From NCBI GenBank assembly GCA_964567205.1, contig CAZMKW010000001.1, positions 1 through 48,832 on the forward strand: a stretch of 48,832 nucleotides of DNA. Direction: 5' to 3'. Below the pieces are notes generated by a model, which worked only from the letters and a program-made list of their open reading frames with translations, ran no database searches and had not been told where the DNA came from. Below are positions 3,057-45,398 of this stretch, one piece after another. Positions within the stretch are counted from its first letter, which is position 1. Each line of letters opens with the position of its first letter. This DNA is from an uncultured Candidatus Saccharibacteria bacterium (lineage in GTDB: Bacteria > Patescibacteriota > Minisyncoccia > Minisyncoccales > Staskawiczbacteraceae). Both the position numbers and the translations under genes were made by a program.

Positions 3057-4480
3057 TATTTCTTTTTTTCTCCTTTTTCTTTTATTACGCTAATATGAAG
3101 CTCCTTAAGCTGTTTTTTATCAATTTCCGAGGGGGCGTGCATCATAAAGTCTCGTCCGTCTCCGGTTTTTGGAAAAGCAATCACTTCTCTTATATTTGGT
3201 TCGCCCAACAATAAAGCAAAAATCCTATCTAAACCCCAAGCAATTCCTCCATGAGGAGGAGCGCCGTATTTAAAAGCCTCCATCATGTGTCCAAATTTTT
3301 CTTGTATGACGTCTTTTTTATATCCCATTATTTCAAAAACTTTTTCCAAAGCTTCCGGACGATGATTTCTAATCGACCCTCCACCAATTTCAAAACCATT
3401 TAAAACAACATCATATTGACTTGTTAAAATATTCTCAATATTTTTTTGTTTCATCAAATCTTCGCTGAACTCAGGCTTAGCGGCCGAAAATGGGTTATGC
3501 GTGAAGGTCCATTTCTTTTCGTCGTTCTTTTCAAAAAACGGGAAATCGACCACCCAACAAAATGCTAAAAGATTTTTATCATCAGGGGACCCTTCGGGTC
3601 GTTCCCTTATATCGGGCCTGTCTGTTTTATATTTTGCCATCGCCTCTTTATAAGATATCCTTGGAAATGGAATTTTTTGAATCTTTTTTTCGGGAAATAA
3701 GTTTTGCACTATTAAAATTAAAAGGCGTTCGGTAAGCCCCATAACGTCTTCCTGTTCAACAAAGCTCATTTCCAGATCGAGCTGAGTGAATTCCGGTTGT
3801 CTATCCCCTCTTGGATCTTCGTCTCTCAAACATTTTGCAATCTGAAAATATTTTTCAATACCGGCAACCATTAACAACTGCTTATATTGTTGCGGGGACT
3901 GCGGAAGAGCATAAAATTGGCCTGCGTTTAACCTTGATGGCACGATATAATCTCTTGCGCCTTCGGGCGTTGATTTTGTCAAAATAGGGGTTTCAATCTC
4001 GGCAAAACCCTCTTTATCCATAAAGTCGCGGATAAATTTTATAACCTTATGTCGCACAATAAAATTATTTTTCAACCTTTGCCTTCTTAAGTCTAAATAT
4101 CTATATTTCATTCTTGTCTCCTCACCAATATCATAACCGTCCCCTTCGATAGATAGTGGTATGGCCTCGGACTCGGACAAAACTTTTAAACTTTCCACCG
4201 AAAGCTCAACCTGCCCGGTCTCTATCTTTGGGTTAATCATATTTTCCGGTCTTTTTACTACTTGTCCTCTTATTTCCACAACCCATTCAGGTCTTATAGT
4301 TTGAGCCAATTCATAAGCCTCCTTATTTGAGGGCACAAAAACAACCTGCATAATTCCACTTATGTCCCGCAAATCGATAAATAAAATCTTTCCATGAACC
4401 CTTCTTGTGTCAACCCATCCGCAAACCCTAACTTCTTCTCCAATATGTTTTGCCGTATCTTTTACTAAAAATCTTTGCAT
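3056..4480 (-). CDS. aspS: Aspartyl-tRNA synthetase, bacterial-type core without the GAD insertion domain
   Basis: N-terminal OB-fold sequence plus FYALPQSPQQYKQLLM and RDEDPRGDRQPEFTQLDLEMSF class II motifs. The ORF is only 474 aa. The sequence passes from DRPDIR almost directly to WVVDFPFFE. Confidence 0.93.
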   Translation of the reverse strand: MQRFLVKDTAKHIGEEVRVCGWVDTRRVHGKILFIDLRDISGIMQVVFVPSNKEAYELAQTIRPEWVVEIRGQVVKRPENMINPKIETGQVELSVESLKVLSESEAIPLSIEGDGYDIGEETRMKYRYLDLRRQRLKNNFIVRHKVIKFIRDFMDKEGFAEIETPILTKSTPEGARDYIVPSRLNAGQFYALPQSPQQYKQLLMVAGIEKYFQIAKCLRDEDPRGDRQPEFTQLDLEMSFVEQEDVMGLTERLLILIVQNLFPEKKIQKIPFPRISYKEAMAKYKTDRPDIRERPEGSPDDKNLLAFCWVVDFPFFEKNDEKKWTFTHNPFSAAKPEFSEDLMKQKNIENILTSQYDVVLNGFEIGGGSIRNHRPEALEKVFEIMGYKKDVIQEKFGHMMEAFKYGAPPHGGIAWGLDRIFALLLGEPNIREVIAFPKTGDGRDFMMHAPSEIDKKQLKELHISVIKEKGEKKK

Positions 4481-15505: not shown

Positions 15506-15568
15506 TCACCCCGCCCTCTAAGCTCTGCGTTCGTGTTCTACATAACACCTACAGCATAGAGGGCGGGG
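15506..15568. repeat. Inverted-repeat element, copy A (13-bp perfect arms ACCCCGCCCTCTA / TAGAGGGCGGGGT, 36-nt interior)
   Basis: Read directly. The termini CACCCCGCCCTCTAAGCT and GCATAGAGGGCGGGGT are identical to those of copy B at 44208-44308. Confidence 0.9.
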
Positions 15569-15588
15569 TAAGTCTCGCTATCGCTCGC

Positions 15589-20278: not shown

Positions 20279-21778
20279 TTAGCACAGAGAAATGCCAAGC
20301 TGAACCGGCTTTTCCTTACGCGGTTTTGGCGGAGGAAGCTCGCCGTAAGCGACCCTATCCAGCAACTTGGACAATCCGGCGGGACCCGTGTATGCGCCAC
20401 CGGCTATCTCGTCGATAATCACGGGTTGGCCGGGAATTTCCTCAATGGAAAGCTGAGCGGCAAGCAAAGACTTGCTCCCCGCATCGCCCAGAGCAACAGC
20501 AGCAACCGGCACGTTCACGCCATAGTAATGCGCCCACGAATCCAGTACTCCTGCCAAGGCTAAGGCTTTCCCGCCAATACAGATTGCGATGTCAAAGCCG
20601 GTCAGTCCTTCTTCTGCTAAAATCCTAATCTCCTCGGGATTGCGGTGGCAACTCATAACGTGAGCTTTAATGCTAGGTATTTTCCTACTGCACATGCCAT
20701 CACCGCCGAGAATCTTCCTAACTTCCGGAAGGTCGGTGTCACTGCCCAAAACGAGCAGAACATTTGGCACCTTCCGAACAGGATAATCCACGTGCATAAC
20801 CTCGCGGAGGTAATGCTCAATGGTATGGCCGGTCAGTCGCCAGAAAATATAGCGGTAAGCCTGAGTCGTCCGGGCTATAAGATCCTCGGGCATTACAAAT
20901 GAATGGACAATGTCCACATGCTCGGGAATCTCCGGCAACAACTCTTTGACACCGTGCGTCTCCTGGTACAGCTTCATCGCAGCCGATAACCACTTACGTA
21001 CCGGATCTTTGTCAAAAGATCCTGGCGCCCGACGGCCGATTGCCGGCTTTCGGCTAAGCAACCATTCGACGTAGGGCCAGAAACGTGACGAATCCGGCGT
21101 AAGAACTTCATCGACGAGAGTGCCATCTTCGGCAAACTCAAACTTAGTATCAGGTTGTTCAATTCCGTGCTTCCGCGCATAATCGCGTCCGATTTGGTAA
21201 ATCTGCATTGCCCGCATGCTCGCAACCGGATACTGCAGAATAACTTCCTCAGCCGGCACGTTTTCGTCATGGCCTTCTTCGGCCTTGGTGGTTGGTGTGA
21301 GAATCGGACTTGGCAGCTCATCGCCGTCCTGCAAGCCTGGTGGCAACCTATGCCCACAGACTTCCCCGGTTTTTTGGTATTTTGGAACGGCCGTACCGGC
21401 CAAGCACCCGCGCACCACGAACTCGTACTCGGTCGTCCTCAATTCTTTAACCACCATAGCACGAGCTTGAAGATCGATGTTGCCCCGATGCTCCGGTGGC
21501 AAAAACTCGTCTATACCTGAGCCGTAGGCCACCATGTGATGCGGAATGCCGTACTCATCCATCATCTGAAGCCAGAAGACAGTCATGGCGCTCAATACAA
21601 TCCCTTTGTGCTTGACAAGCGCATTCACAACAAAATCTTTGGCGCTTATGCCGTCAGTGGCAACAACAAGCCTGTTGCCAACAGGCAAGCGGTTGCTATC
21701 GCGGACCTTTCCGCGATTCAGAAGTTTCAAGCCGGGCAGCACTGGCCAACCGGCTCTTACGGGAGATAACTTTGGCAT
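20279..21778 (-). CDS. Fusion protein: SAICAR synthetase (PurC) domain plus PurE/AIR-carboxylase-fold domain (PAICS-like order)
   Basis: PurC motifs: GKVRD, ATDGISAKDF, EFVVRGCLAGT, TPTTKAEEGHDENV, DTKFEF, TPDSSRFW. C-terminal PurE-like motifs: LVLGSDTDL, SCHRNPEE, ICIGGKALALAGV. The start was chosen at the ATG with an AAGGAG RBS (M20 of the ORF). The gene is strongly GC-richer than its neighbours. Confidence 0.8.
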   Translation of the reverse strand: MPKLSPVRAGWPVLPGLKLLNRGKVRDSNRLPVGNRLVVATDGISAKDFVVNALVKHKGIVLSAMTVFWLQMMDEYGIPHHMVAYGSGIDEFLPPEHRGNIDLQARAMVVKELRTTEYEFVVRGCLAGTAVPKYQKTGEVCGHRLPPGLQDGDELPSPILTPTTKAEEGHDENVPAEEVILQYPVASMRAMQIYQIGRDYARKHGIEQPDTKFEFAEDGTLVDEVLTPDSSRFWPYVEWLLSRKPAIGRRAPGSFDKDPVRKWLSAAMKLYQETHGVKELLPEIPEHVDIVHSFVMPEDLIARTTQAYRYIFWRLTGHTIEHYLREVMHVDYPVRKVPNVLLVLGSDTDLPEVRKILGGDGMCSRKIPSIKAHVMSCHRNPEEIRILAEEGLTGFDIAICIGGKALALAGVLDSWAHYYGVNVPVAAVALGDAGSKSLLAAQLSIEEIPGQPVIIDEIAGGAYTGPAGLSKLLDRVAYGELPPPKPRKEKPVQLGISLC

Positions 21779-21856
21779 TTCTCGCTCCTTTCCTTCTATG
21801 TCGGTGACAATGAACTGCAAATTTCTTGCTTTCACGCGAAAGCACTTACTGTTCTA

Positions 21857-21887: not shown

Positions 21888-22673
21888 TTAAAAACCAAGC
21901 TCAATCCAGCGCCATTTTCCGTATTGGTCTTTATTAAATTTATAATTTGAGTATTTATTTTTTAAAATTATTTCTTTTACGACCGCCTTCTGATCGGGAC
22001 TGAATTCCATAAAGATTTTACCGTCCGGATTCAAATATTTTTTGGCTTCTTTCAGAAACTTTTTGATATAAAAAAGCCCATCGGCTCCTCCGAATAATGC
22101 CTGACTTGGCTCAAATTTTAAAACTGATTTTTGGATTTTGTTTTTTTGCGTAGTTGGAATATATGGTGGGTTTGCGAAAATATAATCATATTTATTTCTA
22201 ATATTTTTGAAAACGTCGGATTTTATTATTTTACTTCGCCAGGCCGAAGCCTCTGGCGAAGGCTGGTTTAATTTGTAGTTTATTTTTATCTGAGCGATTG
22301 CGTTTTTGTCGTTGTCCGCCATGTCGCATAATAAACCTGGCATATTTTTTAATAACGCAATTCCAATACATCCTGACCCACAAAAAATATCCAAAGCCCT
22401 TATTTTTCTCCTGTCGTGAAAAGTGCGCGATAGCGCACTTTTCACGACAGGTCTTACAATGGACTTTATCGCCTGGTCTACCCAAAATTCTGTTTCCGGC
22501 CGCGGTATCAGCGGTCTTTTTGATAAATCAATTTTACACGACAAAAACTCAGTAAATCCGATTACATAATCTAACGGCTCAGCACCGTTGAGCCGTTTAA
22601 TATCTTTATAAAATTGTTTTGTCGGCCTGCCAAAGTATTTTTCCTTTAACAGCCACCCTAATTCTTTTTCCAT
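21888..22673 (-). CDS. prmC: Release factor glutamine N5-methyltransferase (PrmC/HemK)
   Basis: Contains DIFCGSGCIG (SAM motif) and NPPY (FANPPYIP). The start is at the internal ATG overlapping the upstream stop (TAATG). It carries a 14-codon palindromic insert. Confidence 0.88.
   Translation of the reverse strand: MEKELGWLLKEKYFGRPTKQFYKDIKRLNGAEPLDYVIGFTEFLSCKIDLSKRPLIPRPETEFWVDQAIKSIVRPVVKSALSRTFHDRRKIRALDIFCGSGCIGIALLKNMPGLLCDMADNDKNAIAQIKINYKLNQPSPEASAWRSKIIKSDVFKNIRNKYDYIFANPPYIPTTQKNKIQKSVLKFEPSQALFGGADGLFYIKKFLKEAKKYLNPDGKIFMEFSPDQKAVVKEIILKNKYSNYKFNKDQYGKWRWIELGF
22410..22451. repeat. Perfect 42-bp palindrome (19-bp arms, 4-nt centre) inside the prmC coding frame
   Basis: CCTGTCGTGAAAAGTGCGC-GATA-GCGCACTTTTCACGACAGG read directly. 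It spans exactly codons 75-88 (PVVKSALSRTFHDR). Confidence 0.95.
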
Positions 22674-28746: not shown

Positions 28747-28762
28747 TGTCCGAACGCGACCT

Positions 28763-28801
28763 AAACGCCCCATACTAGGCCTTGCCTAGTATGGGGCGTT
28801 T
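28763..28801. other. Perfect 17-18-bp GC-containing hairpin
   Basis: AAACGCCCCATACTAGG(C)-CTT-(G)CCTAGTATGGGGCGTTT. T-rich sequence follows only on the plus strand. Confidence 0.85.
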
Positions 28802-28813
28802 ATTTATTTAAAT

Positions 28814-40710: not shown

Positions 40711-40717
40711 TACCAAA

Positions 40718-40744
40718 TAAAAAACCGCCATTAGGCGGTTTTTT
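40718..40744. terminator. Bidirectional terminator shared by tRNA-Glu (+) and ftsI (-)
   Basis: AAAACCGCC-ATTA-GGCGGTTTT flanked by A and T tracts. Confidence 0.75.
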
Positions 40745-42485
40745 ATTTGGAGTTTATATCGTAGTCAGGTGGAATCTGCCAATAGTTTATAATATATTGC
40801 GCAAGCTCTTTAAAAACAGGAACCGCTGAAAGAGATGATTTTGGAACTTTAGGATTGTCTAACTTTACTAATATTAAAAACTGCGGATTAAACGCAGGGC
40901 CATAGCCCACAAAGCTCTGTATTGTTTTATCGGGTTCGTATCCTTTTCCTGTTTTTAACGGAATCTGGGCTGTGCCAGTTTTTCCAGCTAAATAATATCC
41001 CGGAATTTTTGCAACACTATTAAAACCCTTATCAACAACATTAACAAGCATTGCGTTTAATTGCGCAATTGTTTGCTTGGAAACGATTTGATCGGAAATT
41101 TCCGGCCTTGTATAAACCTCGTCTCCGCCGTTAACGATTTTTTCAACTATATATGGCTTCACTAATTTTCCGCCGTTAGCTATCGCGCAAAACCCCCTGG
41201 CAATTTGTATCGGGGTCAACTCAATTCCTTGTCCAAAAGAGGCTGTTGCGTAATTCATGTCTGGACCGTTTTTCAAGCTTTCGTTGCGAGAATACGCCTC
41301 TGCCTGCAAATCAACTCCTGTTTTATAAACAAAACCAAATTTATCTATATAATTAAAAAATACATCGTGGCTAATTTGCTGTTCTGCAAAAACGGCTCCC
41401 GTGTTAATTGAGTTTTCTAAAACCTGAGTCATTGTCTGTTTGCCATAAATTTCGTTGGCAAAATTATGAATTGATTTTGTGCCAAAGGTTACAACGCCCG
41501 TATCCACATAAGTTGTGTCGGGAGTTATTTTCCCCTCATTTATGGCAGCCGCCATTGTAAACGGCTTCATTATGGAACCCGGCTCAAAAAGTTTTTGCGT
41601 TGCAGAATTCTGGAAAATCACCAAATCCTTTTCTTTTGAATATTCGTTTGGATTAAAATCGGGAAAATTTGCCAAAGCTATAATTTTTCCCGTATCCGGC
41701 TTTAAAACAATTATCTGACCGGAATCTATATCATTTTTCTTTTGCTCTTGTCTTAATAAAGTTTCTGCTTGAAATTGTATATTATAGTCGATTGTTAAAT
41801 AAATATCTGAACCATCCAATGATATTTGTTTATCAGCTGAAAAAATAGACTCTAATCCTGATTTTTCCTGCTGTATCCCTGACTTACCCTTTAAAATATC
41901 TTCATAGTATCCCTCTACTCCATACTGCCCCGCACCAGCTCCTCCTAAAAATCCCAAGGTTTGTGAAAGCATTTCGCCTTGCGGATAAAATCTATCCGGT
42001 ATGTTTTCCCAAGACAACCCCTTAAGATTTAGTTCTTTGATTTTATCTAATTCTTCAGAAGATAAGTTTTTTTCTATAGCAACATAAGAATCCTGGCTGT
42101 TCAGTTTTGCCAGTATTTGTTCGGAGGATAACCCAATAGCCGTTCCCGGTAGCTGACCAAGGGCTTCGCTTAAAATTTTAGCGAATAATTCTTTATCAGG
42201 AATATCGTTCGGATTCGCGGAAATTGTCCACTTGTTTCTGTTTATCGCCAAACTCTTAACTTCACCAGAAGACCCGTTACCCTTGCTTTTTTGGCTGTTC
42301 TCACAAAAAATTTGCCCCCTTAAACCGGTGACCCTGCTAAAGTCCATTTGTTGTCCAAGCGCCTGTGCTTGGAAAAGTTTGCGCTCTAAAATCTGCAAAA
42401 CAAATAGGCGGCTAATAATAGCTGCCCCAAAAATGATAATAAACGCTAGGACTATGCCTGTTCTCCAATTAGAGAGCTTCTTCAT
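40743..42485 (-). CDS. ftsI: Penicillin-binding protein 2/FtsI-type peptidoglycan D,D-transpeptidase
   Basis: N-terminal TM segment, SxxK (GSIMKPFT), SxN (NSINTG), KTGTAQ. Confidence 0.9.
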   Translation of the reverse strand: MKKLSNWRTGIVLAFIIIFGAAIISRLFVLQILERKLFQAQALGQQMDFSRVTGLRGQIFCENSQKSKGNGSSGEVKSLAINRNKWTISANPNDIPDKELFAKILSEALGQLPGTAIGLSSEQILAKLNSQDSYVAIEKNLSSEELDKIKELNLKGLSWENIPDRFYPQGEMLSQTLGFLGGAGAGQYGVEGYYEDILKGKSGIQQEKSGLESIFSADKQISLDGSDIYLTIDYNIQFQAETLLRQEQKKNDIDSGQIIVLKPDTGKIIALANFPDFNPNEYSKEKDLVIFQNSATQKLFEPGSIMKPFTMAAAINEGKITPDTTYVDTGVVTFGTKSIHNFANEIYGKQTMTQVLENSINTGAVFAEQQISHDVFFNYIDKFGFVYKTGVDLQAEAYSRNESLKNGPDMNYATASFGQGIELTPIQIARGFCAIANGGKLVKPYIVEKIVNGGDEVYTRPEISDQIVSKQTIAQLNAMLVNVVDKGFNSVAKIPGYYLAGKTGTAQIPLKTGKGYEPDKTIQSFVGYGPAFNPQFLILVKLDNPKVPKSSLSAVPVFKELAQYIINYWQIPPDYDINSK

Positions 42486-44207: not shown

Positions 44208-44308
44208 CACCCCGCCCTCTAAGCTGTTGGTTTTTGTTTGAGGGTTTTCTGGGTGCTTCAGTAATTGTTTTTAAATTATAAATAATGAATGGGCATAGAG
44301 GGCGGGGT
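44208..44308. repeat. Inverted-repeat element, copy B (same 13-bp arms as copy A, 74-nt interior) in the mraZ leader
   Basis: CACCCCGCCCTCTAAGCT is at 44208-44225 and GCATAGAGGGCGGGGT at 44293-44308. Confidence 0.9.
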
Positions 44309-44548: not shown

Positions 44549-44580
44549 AAAAAAGCCTCGCGTAAACTAATACGCGAGGC
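44549..44580 (-). terminator. Intrinsic terminator of the two-gene zinc-ribbon cassette
   Basis: Minus strand reads GCCTCGCG-TATTAGTTTA-CGCGAGGC followed by T6. Confidence 0.8.
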
Positions 44581-44608
44581 ATGATCTTATCTTCATACGT
44601 CACCCTTT

Positions 44609-44806
44609 CTATGTTGTAGAATTAGAAGACGTAGAGATTACTCTTTCTTTGGGCCAAAGTTCGCTCTGGGCCATGTCTGCGATTTTTTTGACGACATGCC
44701 CATGGCAACAGTGTTCTGTGTCTCTCAGCTCGGTTACATCGTAATACCCACGACACACCTCGCAGTAGTATGTCCCCACATGATTTTGTGCTTTGTTGTC
44801 GGCCAT
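44609..44806 (-). CDS. Small Cys/His-rich (zinc-ribbon-like) protein
   Basis: 65 aa with CEVC and HCCHGH. A GGAGAG RBS lies inside the end of the upstream ORF. GC-richer than the backbone. Confidence 0.6.
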   Translation of the reverse strand: MADNKAQNHVGTYYCEVCRGYYDVTELRDTEHCCHGHVVKKIADMAQSELWPKERVISTSSNSTT

Positions 44807-44807
44807 C

Positions 44808-45041
44808 TCACTCTCCTTCCTTAAAAATCACGGCGCCATTCACGAAACGCGCGCTCATTTTGGTGCCGTGTTCCGTATATAATTGTCCGCAAGTCTCGCA
44901 GGCGTATCCGATACAATCGCCTACGGGAATTTCTCTGACAAAATCAATCTCGCCCAAGCAACTCTGCTTTACGCACTTTGTGTTTTGTAAAATAATCTTG
45001 TTCATTTCTTGTCCCTTTCCTTGTAGTTGTGAATGAGCCAC
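44808..45041 (-). CDS. Small zinc-ribbon-like protein (start uncertain: GTG at 45041 or ATG at 45005)
   Basis: CVKQSC and CETCG pairs. The GTG start has a GGAGGA RBS that is sequestered in the upstream hairpin. The ATG start has GGAAAGGGA upstream. Confidence 0.55.
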   Translation of the reverse strand: MAHSQLQGKGQEMNKIILQNTKCVKQSCLGEIDFVREIPVGDCIGYACETCGQLYTEHGTKMSARFVNGAVIFKEGE

Positions 45042-45070: not shown

Positions 45071-45168
45071 GATATAACTTTTTTGTTTTATTTATTTATA
45101 TACTATTATCAAAAACCTCCTGGATTTCGCCAATAAAAGCAAGCTTAACAATGCGAGGTTTTTATTCA

Positions 45169-45398
45169 CCCCGTTAGAGGTTTGTTTCATGTTTTGTACT
45201 GAATCCCGTCAAGGTCGTTAGCATCTCTAACGGGGTTCATATTTTTATAATACTCTTGTATGGGAGCTTGTCAACCCCGTTAGAAACGCCACCCGCGCCT
45301 ACCCCGCTTAGAGGTATGATTTTTTAAACCCTTCCGGATTTTGCTTATCTGCGTACCCAAAGGGCCCAGGGCGGGCCGTTTCTGACGGGGTCAACCCC
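45169..45398. repeat. Cluster of five alternately oriented GC-rich motifs (CCCCGYTAGAG / CCCCGTYAGAAACG)
   Basis: Copies lie at 45169-45180 (+), 45225-45235 (inverted), 45275-45288 (+), 45302-45314 (+, one extra C) and 45377-45390 (inverted). The last copy abuts the stop codon of the Clp-like gene. Confidence 0.85.

Follow-up and report, generated by a model that had tools for sequence, protein, structure and literature searches.

The first-described Rickettsia palindromic elements (RPEs) are ~150 bp long, with 44 copies in R. conorii of which nearly half are in frame, and about ten families are known (PMC10969869). The GTAG- and CGTC-tagged repetitive extragenic palindromes (REPs) are stem-loops of 20–40 bp, mostly intergenic and near the 3′ end of the upstream open reading frame (ORF); a minority lie wholly within ORFs and are translated, and the CGTC type, which includes RPE-4 and RPE-6 of R. 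conorii, has no dedicated transposase (Di Nocera et al. 2013, PMC3733652). Small non-autonomous inverted repeats of the MITE type (miniature inverted-repeat transposable elements), such as Coxiella QMITE, ERIC and Correia, are able to fuse in frame with ORFs (PMC10969869, PMC5896051). Short intragenic palindromes of the REP type are already known outside Rickettsia (PMC3733652), so an element of this kind is not new in itself. Here we report on a 42-nt hairpin lying in frame within prmC (hemK), on a 48,832-nt stretch of contig CAZMKW010000001.1 (GenBank assembly GCA_964567205.1; the whole stretch is hereafter the window) from an uncultured, ultra-small bacterium of the candidate phyla radiation (CPR) whose named relatives are Candidatus Staskawiczbacteria. 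A preliminary description of the window had read this hairpin as an inserted palindromic element, analogous to RPEs and tolerated by its host gene.

Genomes are tiny and streamlined in the CPR, or Patescibacteria, and lineage-specific insertions of unclear origin are a known trait of the proteins and rRNAs of these bacteria. The 42 nt are probably, at a rough two chances in three, one copy of a small, low-copy family of hairpin palindromic repeats that circulates in Staskawiczbacteria-like Parcubacteria of the CPR. The analyses below show an insert that is real, dispersed to at least three loci, compatible with a translated frame, old in tsaE and with a stem kept by compensatory changes. Its unit is defined by structure, running from the base of a 19-bp stem to the opposite base. 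The reading of the preliminary description was borne out by further copies at unrelated loci, by gaps at the element in alignments with solved structures and by the preserved PrmC fold. The evidence supports a new low-copy hairpin-repeat family of the REP/RPE type in a phylum from which none seems to have been described: full-text literature searches returned no paper linking REP-like or palindromic in-frame elements with Patescibacteria or CPR, in agreement with the preliminary description, which knew of no such elements in this kind of genome.

Like RPEs, the repeats are palindromic, dispersed and positioned in frame within unrelated housekeeping genes as well as between genes (PMC10969869), and the encoded peptide is predicted to lie where the fold tolerates it. 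The analogy with RPEs therefore holds for frame and dispersal but not for copy number, which is very low: three copies of 42 nt were found, versus 44 copies of ~150 bp. Moreover, this CPR host is free-living or episymbiotic, whereas that of RPEs is an alphaproteobacterium with an obligate intracellular life, and, judged on size (42 nt rather than ~100–150 bp) and host, the element falls outside the Rickettsia RPE families. As with RPEs (PMC10969869), insertions persist across related species; for RPEs such persistence was reportedly observed by Ogata et al. in 2000 and 2002.

The element shares with REPs a similar size class, a loop (4 nt) within the REP range and, for the copy downstream of ychF, a position near the 3′ end of the upstream ORF that is typical of most REPs. 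However, REPs feature a stem of 8–9 bp, a loop of 4–5 nt, an unpaired terminal tag, a CCA tail and tens to hundreds of copies that often form dimers, whereas this element has a perfect 19-bp stem, neither tail nor dimer, and a very low copy number; furthermore, Patescibacteria are not among the phyla reported for REPs. Membership via a CGTC/TGTC tag was considered and rejected, as the TGTC at nt 3–6 (CGTC in L018 and L024) is base-paired inside the stem. Membership among MITEs, which measure 50–800 bp and have terminal inverted repeats around a non-palindromic core plus target-site duplications, was likewise rejected, the element being a bare 42-nt stem-loop with no consistent duplication. Hairpins generated by template switching (Monttinen and Loytynoja, PMC8794818) resemble it in their perfect arms and in compensatory changes that arise in one step without selection, yet that process acts locally and leaves near-identical copies at three unlinked loci unexplained; it could, on the other hand, be the keeper of stem symmetry in tsaE and prmC.

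Structure of the element and its host gene

Over positions 22410–22451 the plus strand of the window reads CCTGTCGTGAAAAGTGCGC-GATA-GCGCACTTTTCACGACAGG. The two 19-nt arms are fully complementary, as first described, but the GATA spacer between them is not self-complementary, hence the layout is 19+4+19 and not the perfect 42-bp palindrome that had been claimed. The fold energy of the element as RNA is −35.3 kcal mol−1. It is GC-richer than its gene, also as first described (54.8% versus 35.1% for the remainder of prmC and 38.2% for the window). The arm is unique in the window even when three mismatches are allowed. As shuffles yielded no arm match and the longest perfect arm in 30 first-order Markov simulations of the window was 9–12 nt versus the 19 observed, a chance origin of the palindrome is excluded. 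An assembly artefact, an objection anticipated in the preliminary description along with a cloning artefact, is excluded as well, because the whole of prmC including the element is identical (zero mismatches) in six contigs from separate samples and assemblers (three from ENA, two from JGI and one from Logan).

With 42 nt the element equals 14 codons and never shifts the reading frame; the claim that it begins in phase 0 and fills exactly 14 codons of prmC was confirmed. Among the six combinations of orientation and phase, three are open. In phase 0 the frame stays open only if the coding strand carries TATC, the GATA orientation giving a TAG stop in that phase. Both coding copies (prmC and the tsaE copy described below) carry the TATC loop and lie in phase 0, and the intergenic copy has a TATA loop that would give TAG. 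The mirrored peptide CREKCAIAHFSRQ, previously assigned to two antisense ORFs, is indeed found in two overlapping ORFs, but one of these shares the strand of prmC. This phase-2 peptide had no match among 264 fetched proteins.

A covariance model (R1), built from a nine-sequence alignment (A4) of the element and its relatives, scored the prmC element at 69.6 bits; run with filters off over the whole window, it gave no other match above 13.5 bits. No Rfam family matched, the best score being 29.3 bits for a microRNA hairpin model with a gathering score of 90. A scan for intrinsic terminators made no call on the element, a T-run being absent on both strands, and a promoter scan found nothing relevant to it.

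The host gene is prmC/hemK, because its product scores 197.5 bits against TIGR03534 (cut-off 199.1) and 157.9 bits against the HemK family model (cut-off 115.5), harbours both the DIFCGSG and the NPPY motifs, and yields an AlphaFold model whose best Foldseek matches in the PDB are the PrmC structures of E. coli and T. maritima (2b3t_A, 1sg9_A and 1t43; template-modelling scores of 0.78–0.82). Inserts of this sort can mislead homology-based annotation, and the present PrmC falls just under the equivalog cut-off. The ATG of the gene overlaps the stop of the upstream DUF2196/YwbE ORF (TAATG), and the closest PrmC among 5.8 billion proteins shares only 66% identity with its product.

The insert stands just upstream of DIFCGSG, as had been stated, separated from it by six residues. 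That it lengthens the linker between the two flanking motifs, first put at 30 residues and at about 16 without the insert, also stands: from ETE to DIF the linker measures 32 residues, 18 minus the element and 16 in the shortest relatives. Among the best 120 PrmC relatives, the 100 with matchable flanking motifs have linkers of 16–41 residues with many unrelated sequences; this loop, loop 1 of PrmC, is therefore hypervariable. The comparison with orthologues that the preliminary description had proposed agrees with an insertion: the solved HemK/PrmC structures (T. maritima HemK) align with a 13-residue gap at the element, the insert peptide is absent from 118 of the best 120 PrmC relatives, and no orthologue was found that carries a homologous segment without a palindrome.

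The AlphaFold model of PrmC has a mean predicted local distance difference test score (pLDDT) of 92.4. Its lowest-scoring 10-residue blocks span residues 71–90 (72 and 56), which contain the insert at 75–88; next comes block 141–150 (75), within a second hairpin-encoded segment at 137–147; low scores are found in these two regions only. From the model, which had been suggested as a check for a surface loop, we infer that the insert forms a 14-residue, poorly ordered surface segment leaving the methyltransferase fold intact; its location in the lowest-pLDDT blocks and the match to the PrmC fold are direct readings, and the surface position is a prediction.

Further copies at unrelated loci

Scanning a metagenome collection (JGI) with the 19-nt arm, a search that had also been proposed, returned two new palindromic copies, at loci L011 and L013, plus a half-site in an MgtC-like gene (L012) that was rejected as a chance match. 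The two copies lie at unrelated loci, within tsaE and 3′ of ychF respectively, and the similarity ends at the element: by blastn, the window shares nothing with either locus except 42–44 nt. The three copies are 40–41/42 identical. Solved TsaE structures align with a 12–14-residue gap at the tsaE copy, which is identical in eight fetched contig stretches (L011 and L025–L031), whereas the L013 copy sits between genes, beginning 3 nt past the ychF stop codon and ending 9 nt ahead of the next ATG. Among the three, the L011 tsaE copy is the central sequence: the prmC copy equals it plus A16G, which converts an A·C mismatch and makes the stem perfect, and the L013 copy equals it plus one changed loop base (TATC to TATA).

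Table 1. Positions of the hairpin repeat, its parts, its host gene and its further copies. Positions refer to the window unless a locus is named.
Feature	Position	Strand	Remarks
42-nt hairpin repeat	22410..22451	-	PrmC codons 75-88 (PVVKSALSRTFHDR); gene strand CCTGTCGTGAAAAGTGCGC-TATC-GCGCACTTTTCACGACAGG
Arm 1, 19 nt	22410..22428		CCTGTCGTGAAAAGTGCGC; 100% complementary to arm 2
Spacer/loop, 4 nt	22429..22432		GATA on the plus strand, TATC on the coding strand
Arm 2, 19 nt	22433..22451		GCGCACTTTTCACGACAGG; complementary to arm 1
tsaE copy	L011 3644-3685 (ORF 3389-3889)		Phase and orientation as in prmC; encodes PVVKSTLSRTFHDR
Intergenic copy	L013 3610-3651		Flanked by the ychF stop (3656) and the following ATG (3601)
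prmC/hemK (release-factor glutamine N5-methyltransferase), 261 aa	21888..22673	-	Profile and fold matches
PRPETE motif	22488..22505	-	12 residues upstream of the insert
DIFCGSG S-adenosylmethionine (SAM)-binding motif	22371..22391	-	6 residues downstream of the insert
Second GC-rich loop of prmC encoded by a hairpin (QPSPEASAWRS, residues 137-147)	22233..22265	-	pLDDT dips to 75

The PrmC and TsaE proteins that bear the element (P0001, in 12 contigs, and P0241, in 11) have similar contig prevalence profiles and co-occur in JGI sample 3300028298, which is consistent with the three loci belonging to one population.

Pairing and age of the element in tsaE and prmC

Six further related TsaE proteins (69–72% identity overall) have related peptides at the same site, and the underlying DNA in each is exactly 42 nt long, in open frame and at the same position, giving seven tsaE lineages together with L011; the TsaE relatives P0158, P0172 and P0200 are without the insert. 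In the nine-sequence alignment, 89.5% of cells are in standard pairs (31–55% in slid controls) and both sides have changed in 7 of the 19 stem pairs. The covariation score of 0.275, versus 0.210 in shuffles, was reached by 1 of 500 shuffles. The copy encoding part of P0127 is a perfect palindrome that differs from the L011 copy by three double compensatory changes and one mismatch repair, and the two peptides differ at 6 of 14 residues. Because this copy keeps a perfect stem by compensatory changes while its peptide drifts, the conserved property is nucleic-acid pairing and not the peptide.

Several tsaE lineages have partly decayed stems (−11 to −17 kcal mol−1 versus −33 to −35 kcal mol−1). 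As a gauge of constraint on RNA as opposed to DNA, G·U wobbles on the sense strand outnumber A·C mismatches 11:5, a ratio that is not significant and comes from cells that are not independent. The element is older in tsaE than in prmC, and its oldest known residence is a loop of tsaE, where at least seven divergent lineages have homologous 42-nt hairpins at one site.

A re-scan of the fetched proteins found that P0109, a distant PrmC (58% identity overall and 61% core identity, rank 105 of 119 by core identity), bears PVVKNTLSRTFHDG at the same N-side junction as the prmC of the window. This instance is known at the peptide level; the peptide permits 18 of 19 Watson–Crick pairs, a level attained by shuffled peptides in 0.1% of trials. 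In a tree of PrmC core columns, the clade uniting P0001 and P0109 holds 104 of 120 tips.

Origin of the repeat

The favoured reading, of one copy from a small circulating family, can be put as a sequence of events. The tsaE copy would recently have been copied to prmC and to the site 3′ of ychF. In prmC the ribosome would read through the element, adding 14 residues to the stretch that runs from the PETE motif to the SAM-binding GxGxG strand. The survivors would be those insertions that fell in permissive loops and in an open phase only, which would account for the same TsaE and PrmC loops carrying different hairpin inserts across lineages. Our best guess at the means of spread is copy-and-paste of a single-stranded hairpin without target duplication; candidate agents are an enzyme acting in trans that resembles those of the REP/RAYT system (RAYT, REP-associated tyrosine transposase) or of IS200/IS605, or template switching during replication. 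The symmetry of the arms may be kept by arm-to-arm template switching, which yields compensatory changes without selection (PMC8794818), or by selection for the hairpin.

Several observations weigh against this reading, and they concern abundance, agents and distribution. First, the copy number is tiny: there is one copy in the 48.8-kb window, and the covariance model turned up the known copies and no others in ~103 kb of related loci. An arm scan of 185,579 GTDB species representatives found no palindromic copy but four half-sites in high-GC genomes, a number about equal to chance expectation, and the arm had no match in a scan of viral contigs. At the protein level, a search with a synthetic profile (A2; the 14-aa core with random flanks) found eight protein clusters in the 5.8 billion proteins that share words with the element peptide, none at E<=10; going by the equal number, these are plausibly the known two PrmC and six TsaE clusters. 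Second, no transposase or RAYT, and specifically no Y1 transposase, was seen among the 20 window ORFs scanned with Pfam or among the Pfam matches already computed for L001 and L026. Target-site duplication is not consistent, the flanks being TCT/TCT in the window, CGT/TAC in L011 and TTA/TCG in L013, and a conserved flank shared by the copies was not found. Third, that a single genome holds the window, L011 and L013 is a presumption, as tetranucleotide similarity fails to separate related CPR organisms: binning of L011 and L013 to the window by this measure was uninformative, with all related CPR loci at r=0.97–0.99.

Lastly, the distant P0109 has the element at the same junction, and the element-bearing TsaEs are scattered in a crude core-column tree, where the clade joining them takes in 49 of 120 tips. 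The shared junction and the patchy TsaEs fit random transposition worse than they fit site preference, repeated loss or function. The family is very small and, so far as the searches reach, occupies the same loops in two genes and one site between genes. This patchiness may have any of three explanations: a selection filter by which inserts are kept only in permissive loops, a target-site preference of the element, or an ancient element that was lost many times.

The alternative that survives best, though we consider it unlikely, is that the hairpin is a functional cis-element, that is, an RNA or DNA structure read by a nuclease, an RNA-binding protein or the ribosome, which was recruited to tsaE, prmC and the 3′ end of ychF and in which pairing is selected, as opposed to selfish DNA. 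The intergenic copy begins right behind a stop codon, and E. coli REPs just past stop codons affect termination and mRNA stability; here, however, neither an Rfam match nor the T-run of a terminator accompanies the hairpin. Compensatory changes that keep the pairing across tsaE lineages as the peptide changes would follow from such a function, but they also arise by arm-to-arm template switching without selection (PMC8794818), and in several of the same lineages the stem has decayed. Occupation of the same prmC site in two distant lineages speaks for a function; the many TsaE and nearly all PrmC relatives that are without the element or have unrelated inserts at those loops speak against it. 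The excess of G·U wobbles on the sense strand points the same way as a function in RNA but falls short of significance, and the fact that all three hosts are translation-associated housekeeping genes says little, since such genes dominate CPR genomes.

We give slightly less credence to a reading in which the hairpin is, unlike ordinary selfish DNA, a structure-defined element with a site preference or a function that came to occupy the same loops of TsaE and PrmC, both enzymes that modify the translation apparatus, repeatedly in divergent CPR lineages, as well as the site directly after the stop of ychF, a third gene associated with translation. With a site preference, it could be a transposase-free homing element that moves by hairpin-mediated template switching between loci; with a function, it could be a shared RNA or DNA signal (a pause, processing or binding site) linking the expression of tsaE, prmC and ychF.

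More doubtful again is a history without transposition, in which the prmC and tsaE segments are ancient and vertically inherited, copies within a genome are homogenized by ectopic gene conversion, and most lineages have lost or overwritten them. P0109, with the element at the prmC junction despite its low overall identity, fits such a history; so does the difference of 1 nt between copies within the population versus ~7–13 nt among tsaE orthologues, and hypervariable loops make overwriting plausible. However, the rarity of the element among PrmC relatives, set against a P0001–P0109 clade that spans most of the tree, calls for many independent losses, and the intergenic copy after ychF is left unexplained. 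Moreover, conversion tracts bounded exactly by the 42-nt hairpin, with no flanking homology, would in effect be a copy mechanism.

It is very improbable that the palindrome was born de novo in prmC by a local template switch (snap-back copying of an adjacent arm) and is unrelated to the other loci. Template switching does make perfect inverted repeats (PMC8794818), a lineage-specific 9-bp hairpin elsewhere in prmC resembles such an event, and several unique long perfect palindromes occur in these genomes; yet the copies at L011 and L013 contradict it, the three loci sharing 40–41 of 42 nt with identical boundaries, and it is the removal of all 42 nt, not of one arm, that brings the linker back to its canonical length. 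That the palindrome reflects faulty assembly or cloning, or arose by chance in a variable loop of the ordinary kind, has a negligible probability given the six identical prmC assemblies, the eight identical tsaE contig stretches and the short arms in simulation.

If the 42 nt are, as we favour, a copy of a circulating hairpin repeat, the family would provide a concrete source of the insertions in CPR proteins, namely short hairpin repeats that enter housekeeping proteins at permissive surface loops and are translated along with them; inserts of this sort may also explain recurrent odd peptide motifs in CPR proteomes. Being tiny, with an older tsaE copy and derivatives one mutation away, it would be an unusually clean natural example of REP/RPE-like copying without an evident transposase, and it bears on whether stem symmetry stems from selection or from template switching.

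Other hairpins and repeats in the window and related loci

The prmC of the window harbours two other hairpins. The second GC-rich loop listed in Table 1 (loop 2) is encoded by a hairpin whose core at 22234–22261 reads CTTCGCC-AG-AGGC-UUCG-GCCU-GGCGAAG, has stems of 7 bp and 4 bp plus a tetraloop (UUCG), and specifies QPSPEASAWRS. It is a separate sequence family that is also found in prmC of L007 and L010, where the DNA differs at 3 and 5 of 28 nt, respectively, and the proteins are only 62–66% identical. The third, a 9-bp perfect hairpin at 22573–22597 within the conserved KRLNGAEPL coding region, is lineage-specific, being absent from relatives; it was made by synonymous changes of Arg and Leu codons plus a K-to-N change and resembles a template-switch event. 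Directly downstream of prmC, at 20279–21835, lies a purC-purE fusion (518 aa, SAICAR synthetase plus AIR carboxylase domains) with a GC content of 47–49% versus ~38% for the window and a syntenic homologue in L007.

In loop 2 of another PrmC (P0056; L009 10416–10453), an in-frame perfect palindrome of 38 nt has 19-nt arms and no loop. One arm matches the element's loop plus 3′ arm at 14/19 positions and shares their reading frame, and R1 gives no detection; on this partial likeness it may be a permuted relative of the element, which we regard as an unproven lead. At 28762–28802, in the divergent intergenic region between the CYTH-domain and sigma-70 genes and next to the gene for a Pif1 helicase, lies a unique palindrome, perfect over its 19-nt arms and with a loop of 3 nt; L001 and L003 carry it unchanged, and no further copy is present among the fetched loci.

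A second family of dispersed inverted repeats, CACCCCGCCCTCTAAGC ... GCATAGAGGGCGGGGT, occurs in the window at 15508–15569 and 44209–44308, one site separating a pair of FtsX genes and the other immediately upstream of mraZ. Its arms are 28 nt or 68 nt apart, the arms being alike and the interiors different, as in MITEs. The motif (A)CCCCGTTAGAGG recurs in alternating orientation at 45163–45330, downstream of clpB, and inverted pairs of it are found immediately upstream of or across the tsaE start in two relatives (L018 9856/9971 and L022 944/1003); it may be an operator or promoter-associated motif. The ~1.2-kb mraZ–clpB gap has no listed ORF of >=110 aa; the region (44560–45040), which gave no Rfam match, seemingly holds, when read by eye, short minus-strand ORFs rich in cysteine as well as hairpins resembling terminators. 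Just past tRNA-Glu, a terminator-like palindrome with 17-nt arms (40713–40750) has a 33-nt counterpart of 88% similarity at L011 16–48, which may reflect only a shared terminator composition of A-tract, GC-stem and T-tract.

The loops that hold the element in PrmC and TsaE carry other recurrent GC-rich peptide motifs in relatives (alignments A1 and A3). LRSGQAK, LRQAQGK and PSTSSGQ have the look of a single DNA motif, GCTCAGGRCAA, translated in its three frames, and VIPAKAGIQ, IPDQVGNDK and NSKFKIQNSKF also occur there. As far as peptide motifs can tell, this pattern suggests that CPR proteins have taken in hairpin repeats from a wider pool.

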